Source of the DNA: an uncultured Candidatus Rokubacteria bacterium
Lineage (GTDB): Bacteria; Methylomirabilota; Methylomirabilia; Rokubacteriales; DASRDR01
Assembly (NCBI GenBank): GCA_963708025.1
Contig: CAVPSB010000016.1
Span: 128,001-192,000, forward strand
Length of the DNA stretch: 64,000 nt
Direction of reading: 5' to 3'
In this document: piece by piece, positions 36,160 to 50,439 of the stretch
Numbering within the stretch: position 1 is the stretch's first letter
How the letters are laid out: each line of letters starts with the position of its first letter
The notes under the pieces: model-generated
Told to the model about the DNA's origin: nothing
The model's input: the letters and a program-made list of their open reading frames with translations, nothing else
Database searches by the model: none
Made by a program: the position numbers and the translations under genes

Positions 36160-37434
36160 TCACCCGTCGGGCCCGAGCATGTCCCGCAGTGCATTCACCA
36201 GCTGGTTGTCGCTCCAGCGCCACAGGCGGTCGGGATGCTCCTCGACGTCGACCCGCTGGTTCCATGACAGGTCGTCCCGGAAGGCGCCGATCGCGTGAGC
36301 CGCGACCGACCAGAGGGCGAGCGCCAGGAAGGTGGCCTGCCATGCCCGGCGGCGCATCACCATGGGGGCGAGTGGAACGAGACACAACGCGAGAATCGGC
36401 GTGAGGTCGGCCAGCAGGCGCGGGCCGTAGGTCCACCCGCCCCACCACTTGGCCCACTTGCCGTACATCAGGACGGTCAGAACGACCCCGACGCTCAGCG
36501 CGCGCAGCAGCGGGTCTCCCCCGCGTCGCCAGGCGGACGCGAAGCCCACCGCCGAGAGGATAAAAACCGGCGAGTACACGAGGAGCCCCCGTCCCGGGCT
36601 CAGCAGGACCCCGGTGAGCCCCTCCCACAGAGGGGTCCGCCACAACGATGGCTCGAAGAGGGGCAGCTGCGTGTGAAGGGGACGGCCGAAGTAGACGGTG
36701 TTGTACCACAGGTGGAAGAGCACGCACGGTACTCCGCCGAGAGCGAACACCCAGGCCTGAGCGAGGTGGTACCGCAGGACGTAGACCAGGAGGGGCACCG
36801 CGAGCACGATGTCGGGCGGCCGGGCGAGCACGGCAAACGACAGCGGAAACCCGGCCACGCCCACCCAGCCGGGCTCCGTCCGCCCCCGCACGAGGCAATA
36901 CAGGGTGGTCGCCAGCGCCAGCTGGCTCGGGCCATGCTGCCAGAGCGCCTGGCTGCTGACGCTCAGACTGCTCGTGCCCAGCCCGTAGACCGCGACGATC
37001 GCGACGGCGACCCGCCGGCTCGTCAGCCTCAGGAGAACGAGATAGAGGGCGACGGCCGACAGCGCCACGATGATGGCGGCCGAGAGCTTCTCCTGCTCCG
37101 CCATGCCGGGACTCTCCGGGCTGATTCCCAGCAAGACCGCCGGCACATAGATCGGCAGCGCCACCAGCGCCACCCCCACCGGGTACCACGACACGTAGTG
37201 CCCTTTGGCCTGGACGATGTAGTACGGCAGGCCCCCGATCCGCCCGCCCGGCGCCCTCTCGTCGAAGAGGAAGGGAAACGCATCGAGATGGAAGGTGCCC
37301 CCCCGGAGGATGCTGAGAGGCAGGTAGCGGGCCGGCAGCGTGTCCCCGGTCGCGATCGTTCTCCCGTTGGCCAGGTAGACTCCCACGAGCACGAAGAAGA
37401 TGACGGCAACCTCCGCCAGGCCCCTGATCTTCAA
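36160..37434 (-). CDS. Polytopic membrane protein, GT-C glycosyltransferase-like
   Basis: GDT, SWYPVG, SQALWQHG, SPGRGLLVYSP, WWGGWTYGPRLL; many hydrophobic segments. Confidence 0.7.
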   Translation of the reverse strand: MKIRGLAEVAVIFFVLVGVYLANGRTIATGDTLPARYLPLSILRGGTFHLDAFPFLFDERAPGGRIGGLPYYIVQAKGHYVSWYPVGVALVALPIYVPAVLLGISPESPGMAEQEKLSAAIIVALSAVALYLVLLRLTSRRVAVAIVAVYGLGTSSLSVSSQALWQHGPSQLALATTLYCLVRGRTEPGWVGVAGFPLSFAVLARPPDIVLAVPLLVYVLRYHLAQAWVFALGGVPCVLFHLWYNTVYFGRPLHTQLPLFEPSLWRTPLWEGLTGVLLSPGRGLLVYSPVFILSAVGFASAWRRGGDPLLRALSVGVVLTVLMYGKWAKWWGGWTYGPRLLADLTPILALCLVPLAPMVMRRRAWQATFLALALWSVAAHAIGAFRDDLSWNQRVDVEEHPDRLWRWSDNQLVNALRDMLGPDG

Positions 37435-37817
37435 CGCCGGAACAGGAAGCGGGCGAAGAACGGGCGGTTCCGGGCGACCAGCCGGTAGCCGGCCTCAACC
37501 GCCCAGACGAGCGGCGGGACGCGGAGGACGCGGCCCAGGCGCGGGAAGCCGATCCGCTCGAGGATGAACAGGCTGGCCCGGCCGGCCGCGAGCAGCGTGC
37601 CGTCGGGGCCGAGGACGTGGACGGCGCGCGCGCAGCGCTCGGCCAGGGCGTCGGTCATCGGCGGGCGCGGGGCCTCCTGGTAGGGCACGGCCTCGAAGAC
37701 GTCATCCCGATCCCGTCGCTTGACCCAAGCGACCGACCGCCGTCAGAACCCTCACCCGCCGTCCCAGAAGAGCCAGTAGCGGCCGGGACGCCCCGGCGCG
37801 GGGACCGCCGGGCTCAC
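37431..37817 (-). CDS. DCC1/DUF393 thiol-disulfide oxidoreductase with two in-frame TGA codons at the CxxC cysteines (candidate UxxU selenoprotein)
   Basis: GTG at 37817 ...YWLFWDGG-TGA-GF-TGA-RRSVAWVKRRDRDDVFEAVPYQ...AVHV...GYRLVARNR, all in one frame. TGAs at 37754-37752 and 37745-37743. Confidence 0.85.
37708..37739 (-). promoter_or_regulatory. Bacterial SECIS-like hairpin
   Basis: CGGUC-G-GUCGCUU-[GGGUC]-AAGCGAC-GG-GAUCG, starting 3 nt after the second UGA; G-first apical loop. Confidence 0.7.
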
Positions 37818-38080
37818 GGGAAGACGCGCTTCCCCGCTCTCCTCAGGGCGTGAACCAATACCGGCGACTCCCATTCCCGCCATCCATGCCGGAGGCCCCC
37901 GTCCCCGCCGCCCGGCTCCCACTCCGACCGCCGATCGGCTTCTCGCAACGCTCTGCTCCCCCCAAGCGGCCGTGGCGTTCCGCTTCGAGCCGCGGCCCAA
38001 AGGCCGAAGGCCGTCCAACAGTCGCGGCCTCCGAGGGGGGGGGCATCGGGGGGGTCTTGGAAGACCCCCCCGAAAAGTCC

Positions 38081-38422
38081 TCAGGGCAGGAACTCGTTGG
38101 GCTGCTCGAAGATCCCGAGCCCGATGCACCCCTCGGGCGACCACGCGCTGTGGATCGAGCCCGGCCGGCGCCACACGAAGTTCCCCGCCGTGCAGGCGCC
38201 GTCCTCGTCCACCAGCGAGCCCTCCAGGATGAAGCTCTGCTCGAGGCCGACGTGGCGGTGGCGGGGCAGCCGCGCGCCGGGCTCCATCCGCGTGAGCACG
38301 GTGCGCCGGCCCGAGGCGTCCTGGTAGAGCACCTTGTTCCAGACCCCGGGGAACGGGGTCGGCTCCCAGTCCATCCCGGCGACGTCCACGTAGGTCGAGC
38401 GCTCGGTCTCGTTCAGGATCAT
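38081..38422 (-). CDS. ChrR-like cupin domain protein
   Basis: WEPTPFPGV, PGARLPRHRHVGLEQSFILEGS, PGSIHSAWS. Confidence 0.85.
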   Translation of the reverse strand: MILNETERSTYVDVAGMDWEPTPFPGVWNKVLYQDASGRRTVLTRMEPGARLPRHRHVGLEQSFILEGSLVDEDGACTAGNFVWRRPGSIHSAWSPEGCIGLGIFEQPNEFLP

Positions 38423-38766
38423 CGACTGTCCTCCTCTTGCGCTCCGCCGATGTACTGGCCGAGGAGCATGATCCGATCGCCCTCGAGCAGCTCGGAGTCG
38501 AGGTCGTGGCTCACCCCGAGGACGGCGTTGTTCACCATGACCTCGATGTTGTCGCCGATCTCCCGGGAGCTCTTCGGATCCCAGAGCGCCCCGGCCAGCG
38601 CCGGGTTGCGCTCGCTGACCTGGCGGAGGACCGAGCGAACCGTCGCGCCGCGCGGCGCCTCCTCGGTCAGCGTCACCTCGCCGGTGCCGGGGCCGCCGAC
38701 GAACCGGTTGACCCAGGAAAGCACCTCGACCCGGACGCGGATGGTCGCGCCGGGCGGGGCCGTCAC
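38419..38766 (-). CDS. moaD: MoaD/ThiS family sulfur carrier with a C-terminal extension after GG
   Basis: GATVRSVL, VMVNN, LLEGDRIMLLGQYIGG-AQEEDSR. Start uncertain. Confidence 0.7.
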   Translation of the reverse strand: MTAPPGATIRVRVEVLSWVNRFVGGPGTGEVTLTEEAPRGATVRSVLRQVSERNPALAGALWDPKSSREIGDNIEVMVNNAVLGVSHDLDSELLEGDRIMLLGQYIGGAQEEDSR

Positions 38767-38919
38767 TTCCGCGCGCTGTCGTCCTTCAGGAGGGGGAGTC
38801 CCAACCATCAGATCGCCTGGACGCCTCGGGCCTGCGGCTCTCGGGACGTCCGGCCCCTCCGGTGGTCCCCCTCCTGGACCTCCCCCACCTGGGGGTCGAA
38901 CGGTCATGGCAGACCCTGA

Positions 38920-40860
38920 TCACCTCGGGCCCTGCGGCTTCCCATCGCCCCACACGGCCGGAATCATCCATTCGAGCCCCAGCGCCTGCAGGGTCTCCCG
39001 CTTGGGCCGGCCGGTCGGCCGGTCGTAGCCCATGCCGTCGTACCAGACGTCGAGCATGTGGTCCCAGTGCTTCTCGACCGACTGACCCTTGGCGGGTCCG
39101 TCCACCGGGATCGAGCCGTAGCGCTTGGAGGGCCGCTCCAGCTCCGGCCCGACGCCGGACCGGATGTTGAAGGCGCGGAGCATCGCGCCGATGCGCCGGC
39201 CGAACCGGAACGCCTCGTCCCGCGTGTACTCCCAGCCGGTGGCGGCCGACAGCGCGCGGCACAGGTTCTCGAACGTCGTCCGCGTCGTGAAGATGCAGGC
39301 GCCGAGCGAGTCCTCGAAGTGCCGGCGCCCGTTGAGGGCGGCCGTCTGCCGCGCCACCTGGTCGGGATCGAACGGGTTGATCCGGGCCGGGAGGCCCAGC
39401 TCGGTCGGGTGGACGGGCGGGCCGGTCTCGAGCGTCCCCGTCGAGCCGGTGCAGGTGTCCAGCATCTCGTCCCAGCGCGCGCGGTGGTCGTGGCCGCGGG
39501 GCGAGGCGTTCTTCCCGGTGTAGATCGCGCACTCGGCGGCGCCCCCGCCCAGCCGCTCGGCGGCGAGCTTGACGCCTTCGGCCAGCAGGTCGCCCAGACC
39601 CTCCCGCCGGTTGATCAGCTGGAGCAGGCGATTCGCCCCCTCGGCGTCCCCCCACGGGAGGGCGAAGCCGAGCTGCCGCTCGGTGATGTAACCCTTCTCC
39701 ACGCACTCCATCACCCAGCCGCAGAGCCAGCCGAACTCGTTGACGTCCACGCAGGCCCGGTCGAGCTGGGTGTTGAGCCAGGAGACGGCGACCGGGTCCG
39801 TGCAGCCGATCGTCCAGCCGGCGCCGGACCAGCCCTCGTACTCCGGCTCGTCGACGATGTCGCCCCGGTGCGGGCCGGTCGGGAGCACCTGCATGTGGCA
39901 GTGGTGCATGCCGCAGGAGCTGCACTGGTGGCCGCGATGGTCGAAGCCCTGCCGGAGCGCGGGCGCCTCCCACTTCTTCATGTCCACGTCGGGCGGGGCC
40001 ACGCTGGTGGTGTAGTTCTTGATCGGGAGCGCCCCGAGCCCGTGGAGGTTGACCACGCCCGGGAGCGTCCCGTACTCGTACAGCGTGCGGGCGGCCGGGT
40101 TGGTGCGGAGGTCGTAGGAGATCTCGTCCGCGGCCGCGTAGACCCCGCGGGGATCGACGGCGCGGATCGCACGGGTGCCCCGGACGATGGCGACCGCCTT
40201 CAGGCGCTTCTTCCCCATCACCGCGCCCACGCCGTTCTTGGAGGCGACGTGGCCATAGTCGCCCTGGATGGCGGCGAACCGGACCAGCGTCTCGCCGGCC
40301 GGGCCGATCGAGTAGACGGAGAGCATGTGGCCCTTCCATCCGAGCTCGGCGGAGAGCGCGTCCTGCGTCTCCCACGTGTCCTGGCCGAGGAGGTGGCTCG
40401 CGTCGCGGAGCTCGACGCGGTCGTCGTGGATCAGGAGGTAGACCCACCGCGGCGCCTGGCCCTGGAGGACGATGGCGTCGTAGCCGGAGAACTTCAGGTT
40501 GGCGCCGAAGAAGCCGTTGGCCTGGGTCGAGGTGGCTCCGTTGGTCATCGCCCCCCGGGTGATGACGGTGAGGCCGCCGGTCCCCCAGACCGGCAGGCCC
40601 GCGAACGGCCCGGTCGCCAGCACCAGCCGGTTGTCCGGGTGATCCCAGCCGACCTCGGGCGGCACCTCCTCCCACAGCACCTTCGCCCCCACCCCGACGC
40701 CGCCGAGGTAGAAGCGCATCTCGGCGGGCGTCCACGGCTGGCTCCAGATCCGCCCGGTGGTCAGGTCGACCCGCAAGAGCTTGCCCGCGTAGGCGCCGGG
40801 AAGCTCGGCCTGGGGTGCCGCTCCGCCCTCGCTGCGCGCCATCGTACCGGCCTGCGCCAT
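38920..40860 (-). CDS. aor: Aldehyde:ferredoxin oxidoreductase family (tungstopterin) subunit
   Basis: GKLLRVDL, YLGGVG, GYDAIV, IGPAGE, GVGAVMGKKRLKA, CSSCGMHHC, EPEYE, DSLGAC, YDGMGYD. Confidence 0.92.
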   Translation of the reverse strand: MAQAGTMARSEGGAAPQAELPGAYAGKLLRVDLTTGRIWSQPWTPAEMRFYLGGVGVGAKVLWEEVPPEVGWDHPDNRLVLATGPFAGLPVWGTGGLTVITRGAMTNGATSTQANGFFGANLKFSGYDAIVLQGQAPRWVYLLIHDDRVELRDASHLLGQDTWETQDALSAELGWKGHMLSVYSIGPAGETLVRFAAIQGDYGHVASKNGVGAVMGKKRLKAVAIVRGTRAIRAVDPRGVYAAADEISYDLRTNPAARTLYEYGTLPGVVNLHGLGALPIKNYTTSVAPPDVDMKKWEAPALRQGFDHRGHQCSSCGMHHCHMQVLPTGPHRGDIVDEPEYEGWSGAGWTIGCTDPVAVSWLNTQLDRACVDVNEFGWLCGWVMECVEKGYITERQLGFALPWGDAEGANRLLQLINRREGLGDLLAEGVKLAAERLGGGAAECAIYTGKNASPRGHDHRARWDEMLDTCTGSTGTLETGPPVHPTELGLPARINPFDPDQVARQTAALNGRRHFEDSLGACIFTTRTTFENLCRALSAATGWEYTRDEAFRFGRRIGAMLRAFNIRSGVGPELERPSKRYGSIPVDGPAKGQSVEKHWDHMLDVWYDGMGYDRPTGRPKRETLQALGLEWMIPAVWGDGKPQGPR

Positions 40861-40870
40861 GCTCTCTCCT

Positions 40871-40976
40871 TTCGGGACCTCCCGCCTACCCGATCCTTCG
40901 CGGCCTTCGGCCTTGGCCTCCCCCACCCACCGGGGGGAGGGGGGAGCCGGAGGCACGCGGTTCCTCGACATGCTCT
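40871..40976 (-). repeat. Intergenic G/C-tract repeat, copy B
   Basis: CCCCCTCCCCCCGGTGGGTGGGGGAGG core, a GGCCGAAGGCC module and the GGTAGGCGGGAGGTCCCGA end. Confidence 0.85.

Positions 40977-47618: not shown

Positions 47619-50439
<2,821 letters not shown>

Follow-up and report, generated by a model that had tools for sequence, protein, structure and literature searches.

Introduction

The DCC1-like family of proteins (Pfam PF04134, formerly DUF393) owes the name DCC to an N-terminal D-x-x-C-x-x-C signature, and Pfam places it among the thiol-disulfide oxidoreductases; its members carry database names such as 'DCC family thiol-disulfide oxidoreductase YuxK' and 'DUF393 domain-containing protein'. 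The plant member, Arabidopsis DCC1, is described as a functional thioredoxin that affects complex I and mitochondrial reactive oxygen species (PMC6603150). Here we describe a gene of this family at positions 37431..37817 (minus strand) of a 64,000-nucleotide stretch of DNA from an uncultured Candidatus Rokubacteria bacterium, referred to below as the window, in which the codons for both redox cysteines are TGA. Judged on its sequence, the gene very probably encodes a two-selenocysteine DCC1-like oxidoreductase of predicted thioredoxin fold in which both redox Cys are replaced by selenocysteine (Sec, U). The original prediction, made from the letters of the window, was of a candidate selenoprotein with a UxxU motif; it is supported by the computations reported below, from which we infer Sec incorporation.

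SelL, a eukaryotic protein of the Prx-like family, has its Sec insertion sequence (SECIS) in the 3'-untranslated region and UxxU in a thioredoxin-fold protein, as is proposed here; it is treated as an analogue in chemistry only. The title of a 2007 paper by Shchedrina et al. (PNAS 104:13919) reportedly announces a diselenide bond in the SelL redox motif. In prokaryotes UxxU is listed for the Prx-like family PF00578, the metal-binding protein NF041115 and FmdB TIGR02605 (PMC13188914 Table 1), and a further report adds the Group 4 [NiFeSe] hydrogenases (PMC13582414). The predicted rarity of two Sec in one redox motif holds, though the motif is known in these families. As in the known UxxU families, the two proposed Sec of the DCC gene lie three residues apart and their UGAs nine bases apart, and a single downstream SECIS is proposed for both UGAs, as it is for the Group 4 hydrogenases (PMC13582414). 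Unlike the members of those families, the DCC protein matches PF04134 only and no NCBIfam family. The Sec position that is optional also differs: it is the second in the DCC family, where UxxC occurs and CxxU does not, whereas Group 4b hydrogenases commonly have CxxU as their single-Sec form (PMC13582414).

Single-Sec relatives of the thioredoxin fold provide a second comparison. In the UxxC forms of thioredoxin, glutaredoxin and DsbA-like proteins, Sec stands at the attacking N-terminal Cys and the SECIS lies just downstream within the coding region (PMC13188914 Table 1). Five orthologues of the DCC gene match this type; they belong to a different family, and in 9 of the 14 Sec forms described below the resolving Cys is Sec as well. 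Neither PF04134 nor any DUF393 or DCC entry appears among the 119 prokaryotic selenoprotein families of a May 2026 review (PMC13188914 Table 1). We found no literature linking DUF393, the DCC family, DCC1-like or YuxK to a selenoprotein or to selenocysteine, Deng et al. 2026 (Cell Rep, on selenoproteins of groundwater metagenome-assembled genomes) lying outside the coverage and possibly listing the family; the literature on Rokubacteria and selenocysteine held nothing relevant by title and abstract, and deep-Sep (PMC12013277) makes no mention of DCC, DUF393 or UxxU. Neither the principle of two-UGA recoding nor the UxxU motif is new; the family is uncatalogued in the table of PMC13188914.

Results

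Two In-frame TGA Codons in a DCC1-like Gene

The gene, recognized from its sequence, translation and Pfam match, comprises 128 codons plus a stop. The open reading frames (ORFs) 37752..38174, which ends ...YWLFWDGG, and 37431..37688 share a frame (38174-37688 = 486 = 162 x 3), and the ORF list, the sequence and the translation all bear out the claim that the two join in one frame through TGA-GF-TGA. The joining sequence on the minus strand is TAC TGG CTC TTC TGG GAC GGC GGG TGA GGG TTC TGA CGG CGG TCG GTC GCT TGG GTC AAG CGA CGG GAT. With TGA read as U, 37817..37431 translates as ...RYWLFWDGGUGFURRSVAWVKRRD...PYQ..., so that the motif reads D-G-G-U-G-F-U. From the sequence and the orthologues, the first in-frame TGA (codon 22, 37752..37754) occupies the place of the first Cys of CxxC and the second (codon 25, 37743..37745) that of the second Cys, and both are proposed to encode Sec; the third in-frame TGA, at 37433..37431, is the real stop. 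We take the GTG at 37817..37815 as the candidate start because it is the sole ATG, GTG or TTG between the conserved YWLFWDG and an intergenic insert that lies upstream, and orthologues start 4-12 codons ahead of the conserved Y/W.

TGA is a normal stop in this DNA, as had been argued against a global change of the code: it ends all six named genes around the locus, the DCC gene included, and 25 of the 38 coding-like ORFs of at least 200 amino acids within the window. Contigs from two DNA studies (X1 and X4) and one RNA-library contig (X15) have no alternative base at 37743-37745 or 37752-37754, so the TGC or TGT that other reads might have revealed at these sites is absent from every covering contig. 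The covering contigs do vary at 37748, where a Phe-to-Leu change gives U-G-L-U, and the same change is found in related genomes. The X15 contig crosses the TGA site over 250 nt (37651-37900), and the contigs of a further RNA library (X16) cover just 37324-37482 plus scraps of the intergenic insert; such contigs are no proof of transcription or translation, since DNA can occur in RNA libraries. Chance and sequencing error are excluded as the origin of the two TGAs, because the orthologues share the TGA places and the covering contigs agree.

Family Assignment and Predicted Fold

With Cys written for both TGA codons, the product matches PF04134 with 56.6 bits (cut-off 27.8, E 7.5e-15), residues 16-120 aligning on profile positions 1-109 of 113. 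This is the sole Pfam family at E <= 0.01, and no NCBIfam family is found at E <= 1. A six-frame search of the genome with PF04134 scores 36.1 bits at the locus, with two TGA inside the match. D19, C22 and C25 are invariant columns across 90 aligned homologues, and both TGA therefore sit exactly on the D-x-x-C-x-x-C motif, which here becomes D-x-x-U-x-x-U. The match and the motif together confirm the predicted identity of a DCC1/DUF393 oxidoreductase. Beyond the motif, a third Cys (C62) and His67 reach at least 90% conservation among the aligned homologues of the subfamily.

The gene product shares PF04134, length and the place of the motif with Cys-type DCC1-like proteins, the full-length CxxC proteins being 52-72% identical to it over the aligned length. 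In an AlphaFold2 model (pLDDT 83.1, pTM 0.75) a strand at 14-18 and a helix at 23-35 form part of a thioredoxin-like beta-alpha-beta start, and U22, lying just ahead of the helix, is put by the model at the helix N-terminus, as in CxxC thioredoxin-fold enzymes. The best structural neighbours are all thioredoxin-fold proteins, with weak scores, and a sequence-profile search of the Protein Data Bank returned no match at E <= 1. What sets the gene apart from the Cys-type proteins is that both redox Cys codons are TGA and that a SECIS-like hairpin follows them.

Public annotation cuts such genes short. Among the 120 best database relatives, 75 are full-length CxxC proteins, which, together with five CxxC loci found at the DNA level, confirms the expectation of Cys at both positions in homologues. 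The other 45 are fragments starting just past the CxxC place; they are named 'hypothetical protein' or 'DUF393 domain-containing protein', and none of them is named a selenoprotein. The window's own database entry is likewise an 85-residue C-terminal fragment (P0010), and the claim that standard annotation would truncate the gene is thus correct for this locus and for 45 of its 120 best relatives.

Conservation of the TGA Codons among Orthologues

A six-frame search of the window's own genome and 60 relatives (n=61, G055 included in the tally) gave matches in 42 of the 61 genomes. The seven matches at 59-98% identity (own included) all carry in-frame TGA, six of them two and one of them one; none of the 39 weaker matches (<= 44% identity) does. 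Across the phylum of the window's organism, 11 of 251 genomes have an orthologue at E <= 1e-20; every one of these orthologues contains TGA, twice in seven and once in four, as expected if the TGA were conserved in related genomes. A scan of one genome per species added 11 further loci, three of them identical with G001, G005 and G014, and the close loci are labelled Candidatus Rokuibacteriota or Methylomirabilota. In the phylum of locus L054 (record label Armatimonadaceae), a homologue at E <= 1e-15 occurs in 39 of 201 genomes, four of which have TGA, the positions of the TGA being verified there for L054 (= G251) only.

At the DNA level we count 14 TGA-bearing orthologues, own included, at 56-80% identity, referred to here as Sec forms. 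The first Cys place is TGA in all 14, and the second is TGA in nine and TGC in the other five. UxxU is found in the window's own gene and in G001, G005, G006, G050, G024, G245, L052 and L054; UxxC in G014, L049, G238, G183 and G181; CxxU in none; and CxxC in five loci (L047, L048, L050, L051 and L053). The nine UxxU genomes span 58-80% protein identity and two phyla by record label, and the protein is conserved on either side of the TGAs, with WLFWDG before them and AWVKRRD...PYQEAPRPPMT after. The same codons are thus TGA in independent genomes, in keeping with the argument that two independent nonsense mutations would be unlikely to land on the catalytic Cys. A SpoU methylase gene and a D-Tyr-tRNA deacylase (Dtd) gene lie downstream in L047, L048 and L050 (CxxC), L049 (UxxC) and L052 (UxxU), and Sec and Cys forms with these same neighbours are therefore positional orthologues. 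As far as the sequences tell, the family forms a natural series of CxxC, UxxC and UxxU in which the first position is always the one predicted to be converted to Sec and the place of the SECIS-like hairpin does not change.

In a quick tree of 94 sequences and 125 columns the Sec forms make up about four groups that lie among Cys forms. The labels cluster, none of 500 shuffles being as low for CxxC, and on the starred branches the CxxC label must change at least three times. The tree comes from a quick search, 125 columns are too few for the order of events, and no number of origins is claimed from it. A single origin of the SECIS, with later reversion to Cys or transfer, appears likelier than repeated invention, because the hairpin is nearly identical in all Sec forms.

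The genome contains a second PF04134 match, at C12:31356-31571 (L012), which was considered as a second Sec form and rejected, having no in-frame upstream CxxC or TGA motif. It covers profile positions 41-112 only, within a 96-residue open frame, and may be a truncated or divergent DCC-like C-terminal domain.

A SECIS-like Hairpin behind the Second TGA

Centroid structure, conservation and covariation define a SECIS-like hairpin at 37715..37733 (minus strand) with a 7-bp stem, GUCGCUU/AAGCGAC, and an apical loop GGGUC (37726..37722). The stem starts nine bases past the second TGA, and the loop lies 16 nt past the second TGA and 25 nt past the first. A lower stem, CGGUC/GAUCG, extends the hairpin round the upper stem-loop to 37708..37739 in the centroid structure of the window's own genome only. 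At 16 nt, the second UGA stands as far from its loop as in Escherichia coli fdhF, give or take one base. Published criteria for a bacterial SECIS (bSECIS) are a loop of 3-9 nt, a stem of 4-16 bp, a G in the first two loop positions, a UGA-to-loop distance of 16-37 nt and a minimum free energy (MFE) of at most -7.5 kcal/mol (PMC13188914 Fig. 2 legend). For both UGAs the present hairpin falls within them, having a 5-nt loop, a 7-bp stem, spacings of 16 and 25 nt and an MFE of -13.0 kcal/mol.

In ten aligned Sec forms 94.3% of the stem cells hold standard pairs; sliding the 3' partners by 1-3 columns lowers this share to 20-51%. RNAalifold predicts the same helix. Compensatory changes from U-A to C-G occur at two pairs (three cells), one pair in G001 and L054 and another in L054. 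When the columns were shuffled (n=500), the observed pairing was reached by one shuffle and the covariation score by four. The four further Sec forms outside this alignment have an identical stem-loop, and the conserved hairpin expected after the TGAs is present. The outcome named beforehand as contrary to the selenoprotein, close relatives that all have Cys and no conserved hairpin, is not what we find: the Sec-form relatives keep both the TGA and the hairpin.

The Cys forms provide a natural control, as they encode nearly the same peptide (AWVK...). The MFE of a 25-nt window is -11.5 to -15.0 kcal/mol in all 14 Sec forms (own -13.0) and -2.3 to -4.5 kcal/mol in four of the five Cys forms, in which the hairpin is lost. 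The pairing rests on the third bases of codons that are rare in this genome: over 1,011 long ORFs, GCT accounts for 3.8% of the Ala codons and CGA for 6.9% of the Arg codons. Twelve of the 14 Sec forms and none of the five Cys forms have GCT, and the two Sec forms with GCC have an altered partner base.

One CxxC locus, L053:1741-1806 (record label Chthonomonadaceae), with codons TGT and TGC, has a hairpin of six of the seven pairs at the place of the SECIS. It may be a relic of a former Sec form.

Selenocysteine Machinery of the Genome

The genome bin of the window (8.17 Mb in 49 contigs, 71% G+C) is 99.67% complete with an estimated contamination of 8.18%, and selA, selB, selD and tRNA-Sec, which the original prediction had proposed to look for, are all found in it. 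The selA match (512.1 bits) lies at C32:203523-204620; a SelB wing-3 domain (76.2 bits) lies in a 642-residue frame adjoining selA; and a tRNA-Sec with anticodon TCA, called by ARAGORN and scoring 76.2 bits with Rfam RF01852 against a gathering score of 47, is situated about 2 kb beyond selA and selB. The selD gene (398.4 bits, G000:C7:91381-92304, L004) is itself a selenoprotein gene: its ...HGAG-U-ACK site has one in-frame TGA, behind which lies a hairpin whose loop is rich in G. A tRNA-Sec over cut-off was also found in all 13 other TGA-form genomes tested, namely 10 related genomes and G251, G252 and G253.

A second SelD-like match, at G000:C23:88505-89419 (L005), scores 270 bits, has no stop and lies inside an 833-residue open frame, which suggests a fusion protein.

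Two ARAGORN calls of the type '???' (C14:20467-20561 and 49363-49447 of the window) were considered as tRNA-ReC, a tRNA that would decode UGA as Cys, and were rejected, as they match neither the Rfam tRNA nor the tRNA-Sec model. The call within the window, on the minus strand, is an 85-nt 'tRNA-???' with a four-base anticodon, ggcg; no Rfam match occurs in 49000-49800 at E <= 1, and the G+C-rich sequence has probably given rise to a false call. Equally doubtful in appearance are several further ARAGORN tRNA calls of 94-100 nt in the genome.

Neighboring Genes and an Intergenic Insert

Downstream of the DCC gene, at 36160..37434 on the minus strand, lies a gene for a membrane protein of 424 residues with a TTG start and a weak match to the PMT_2 glycosyltransferase-like family (PF13231, 25.8 bits, cut-off 26.1). 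The DCC stop and this TTG start overlap as TTGA (37431-37434), which suggests translational coupling in this genome only. Upstream, at 38081..38422 on the minus strand, is a gene for a ChrR cupin-like protein (Cupin_7, PF12973, 76.9 bits). The cupin and DCC genes are separated by a 238-nt intergenic insert (37840..38077), which is outside the selenoprotein gene and is skipped in contigs of the runs X1 and X4; these contigs come from related strains and join 37839 to 38078, placing the cupin gene directly upstream of the DCC gene. The insert is flanked by a 10-nt direct repeat (GCCCTGAGGA), and its core of about 160 nt yields 157 BLAST pieces, which correspond to about 100 copies spread over the genome; in the metagenomes its contig depth is very high. 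The insert resembles a dispersed repeat of the kind of miniature inverted-repeat transposable elements (MITE) or repetitive extragenic palindromes (REP).

Farther upstream on the same strand, 38419-40971 encodes an aldehyde:ferredoxin oxidoreductase (AFOR_N and AFOR_C, 683 residues) and a small protein with a weak ThiS-like match (22.0 bits, cut-off 22.5).

None of the PMT_2-like, cupin and phosphodiesterase neighbors recurs beside the 14 orthologous loci at E <= 1e-5. The sole recurring neighbor of the window's own locus is the ThiS-like gene, which is near the DCC orthologue in G001 and G005 among the 14 loci. A conserved functional partner was sought and rejected, as, apart from the ThiS-like gene, the locus's own neighbors are not recurrent and the other synteny block (Mut7-C, SpoU, DUF1285-like and Dtd) is housekeeping. 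The PMT_2-like gene is, by these comparisons of sequence, a local neighbor and no conserved partner.

Discussion

From the computed gene structure, family, TGA conservation, co-varying hairpin and Sec machinery we infer Sec insertion at both sites and a diselenide. In the mechanism that we propose, SelB with Sec-tRNA(Sec) would bind the hairpin and deliver Sec at UGA codon 22, which precedes the loop by 25 nt. The same hairpin would then take up a second SelB complex, which would deliver Sec at UGA codon 25, three codons on and 16 nt before the loop, so that SelB would have to reload on the same SECIS while the ribosome is already adjacent. In the UxxC orthologues the 25-nt spacing would be used on its own. 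In the finished protein Sec22, at the N-terminal end of helix 1, would attack a substrate disulfide or another oxidized target, and Sec25 would resolve the intermediate to give a diselenide that is recycled by a reductant, a chemistry that we draw from the fold and from CxxC and UxxC enzymes in general. We hold it somewhat more probable than the opposite that the DCC1-like family holds an uncatalogued selenoprotein lineage in bacteria of soil and sediment type that belong, by their record labels, to at least two phyla, with a same-locus series of CxxC, UxxC and UxxU, a single 19-nt hairpin used twice within three codons and a diselenide center.

A number of observations weigh against this interpretation. 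The covariation is modest, the count of doubly changed pairs being reached by 41 of 500 shuffles, and the hairpin coincides in part with conserved codons (VAWVKRR). In stability the 71-nt region does not exceed its shuffles at 71% G+C (z = 0.27, 118 of 200 shuffles folding at least as well); this energy z-score is uninformative, and it is therefore conservation and covariation, not energy, that speak for the hairpin. The UxxC form G014 fits the stem in a shifted register only, with four of the seven pairs in the common register, and in the Cys form L053 a hairpin is retained at -9.9 kcal/mol. In the orthologue alignment the lower stem shows no conservation, and for that reason it is probably not essential. 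An Rfam scan of 36500..39000 at E <= 10 returned five noise matches and no SECIS family, a result that neither supports nor contradicts the hairpin. Matches by structure are weak: Foldseek gave no match at E <= 0.001, its weak top rows being Grx, Trx, GST-N and TlpA, and the best VIA-align Z of 6.1 (GST/Trx-fold) is in the range that the tool calls common. A tRNA-Sec is present in both Cys-form genomes tested, so the machinery does not separate the forms; it is necessary for the selenoprotein reading but non-discriminating. Finally, the bin has an estimated contamination of 8.18%, and the Sec genes lie on contigs C32 and C7 and the window on C16.

The most serious alternative to Sec at both positions is that the UGAs are recoded through SECIS and SelB but that one or both receive Cys, from a tRNA-ReC (selC*)-type tRNA or from tRNA-Sec mis-charged at low selenium, leaving the protein partly or wholly CxxC or UxxC. 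The idea has a precedent: PMC13582414 states that genomes with UxxU-type Group 4 hydrogenases more often hold genes of the tRNA-ReC kind, whose products read UGA as Cys given a SECIS farther down, and that either or both UGAs of such hydrogenases might be Cys. The free alternation of TGA and TGC at the second position of the DCC family (9 versus 5) would also suit it. We nevertheless regard it as unlikely, since the tRNA-Sec model gives a single gene over cut-off in this genome, the next match (44.2 bits, 72 nt) being an ordinary tRNA-Cys that ARAGORN also calls, and since the second over-cut-off matches to the model in G005, G006 and G014 are tRNA-Ser. Neither ARAGORN nor the Rfam models found a tRNA-ReC-type tRNA, though unusual allo-tRNAs could escape both. 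A related proposal confines efficient Sec insertion to the first UGA and makes the second a leaky stop or regulatory brake, full-length protein being formed only under ample selenium. For the DCC family, two SelB deliveries in succession from a single hairpin, three codons apart, are a proposal, and all 14 Sec forms have Sec at the first position but need not have it at the second; yet the second TGA is kept in nine genomes at 58-80% protein identity and in two phyla by record label, its 16-nt spacing is within the published range of 16-37 nt, the downstream domain is clearly conserved at the protein level, and the product of termination would be a 24-residue peptide without plausible function. 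This proposal, too, is improbable in our estimate.

The UxxU pair might form a site for a metal or metalloid (e.g. Hg, Cu, As or selenium itself) instead of a redox-cycling diselenide, as one catalogued UxxU family is the metal-binding protein NF041115, binding capacity is predicted for about 20% of selenoprotein families, with metals accounting for about 70% of it (PMC13188914), and C62 and His67 are at least 90% conserved in the subfamily. The placing of the family by Pfam among the thiol-disulfide oxidoreductases, the description of the plant member DCC1 as a functional thioredoxin (PMC6603150), and the lack of conserved metal-handling genes beside the orthologues make such a site very unlikely. 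Least credible of all, with hardly any weight left to it, is a pseudogene with two nonsense mutations, or errors of assembly or sequencing. Gene callers do treat the locus in this way, as the 85-residue database entry illustrates; TGA, however, recurs at both of these codons in independent genomes whose identity is as low as 58%, with conserved flanks, exactly and only the two catalytic Cys codons are affected, and the covering contigs, from two DNA studies and an RNA library, all show these six bases. Identities of 56-80% and differing neighborhoods exclude copies of one contaminating sequence.

If Sec is indeed inserted as we propose, the DCC1-like family adds one family to the prokaryotic selenoprotein catalogue and to the few families with UxxU. 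The locus also exposes a systematic error of annotation, by which 45 of the 120 closest database entries are left without their active site. In practical terms the importance is moderate, since thiol oxidoreductases regularly yield new Sec forms. A series of CxxC, UxxC and UxxU at one locus, with a very small conserved SECIS, would offer an experimental handle on how nearby UGAs share a SECIS, a question that PMC13582414 raises for the two nearby UGAs of the Group 4 hydrogenases, and the same series would serve as a handle on the advantage of a diselenide over a selenenylsulfide. Should tandem use of the hairpin and the diselenide both prove true, this protein of 128 residues would give the study of tandem Sec insertion and of diselenide chemistry a compact system in bacteria.

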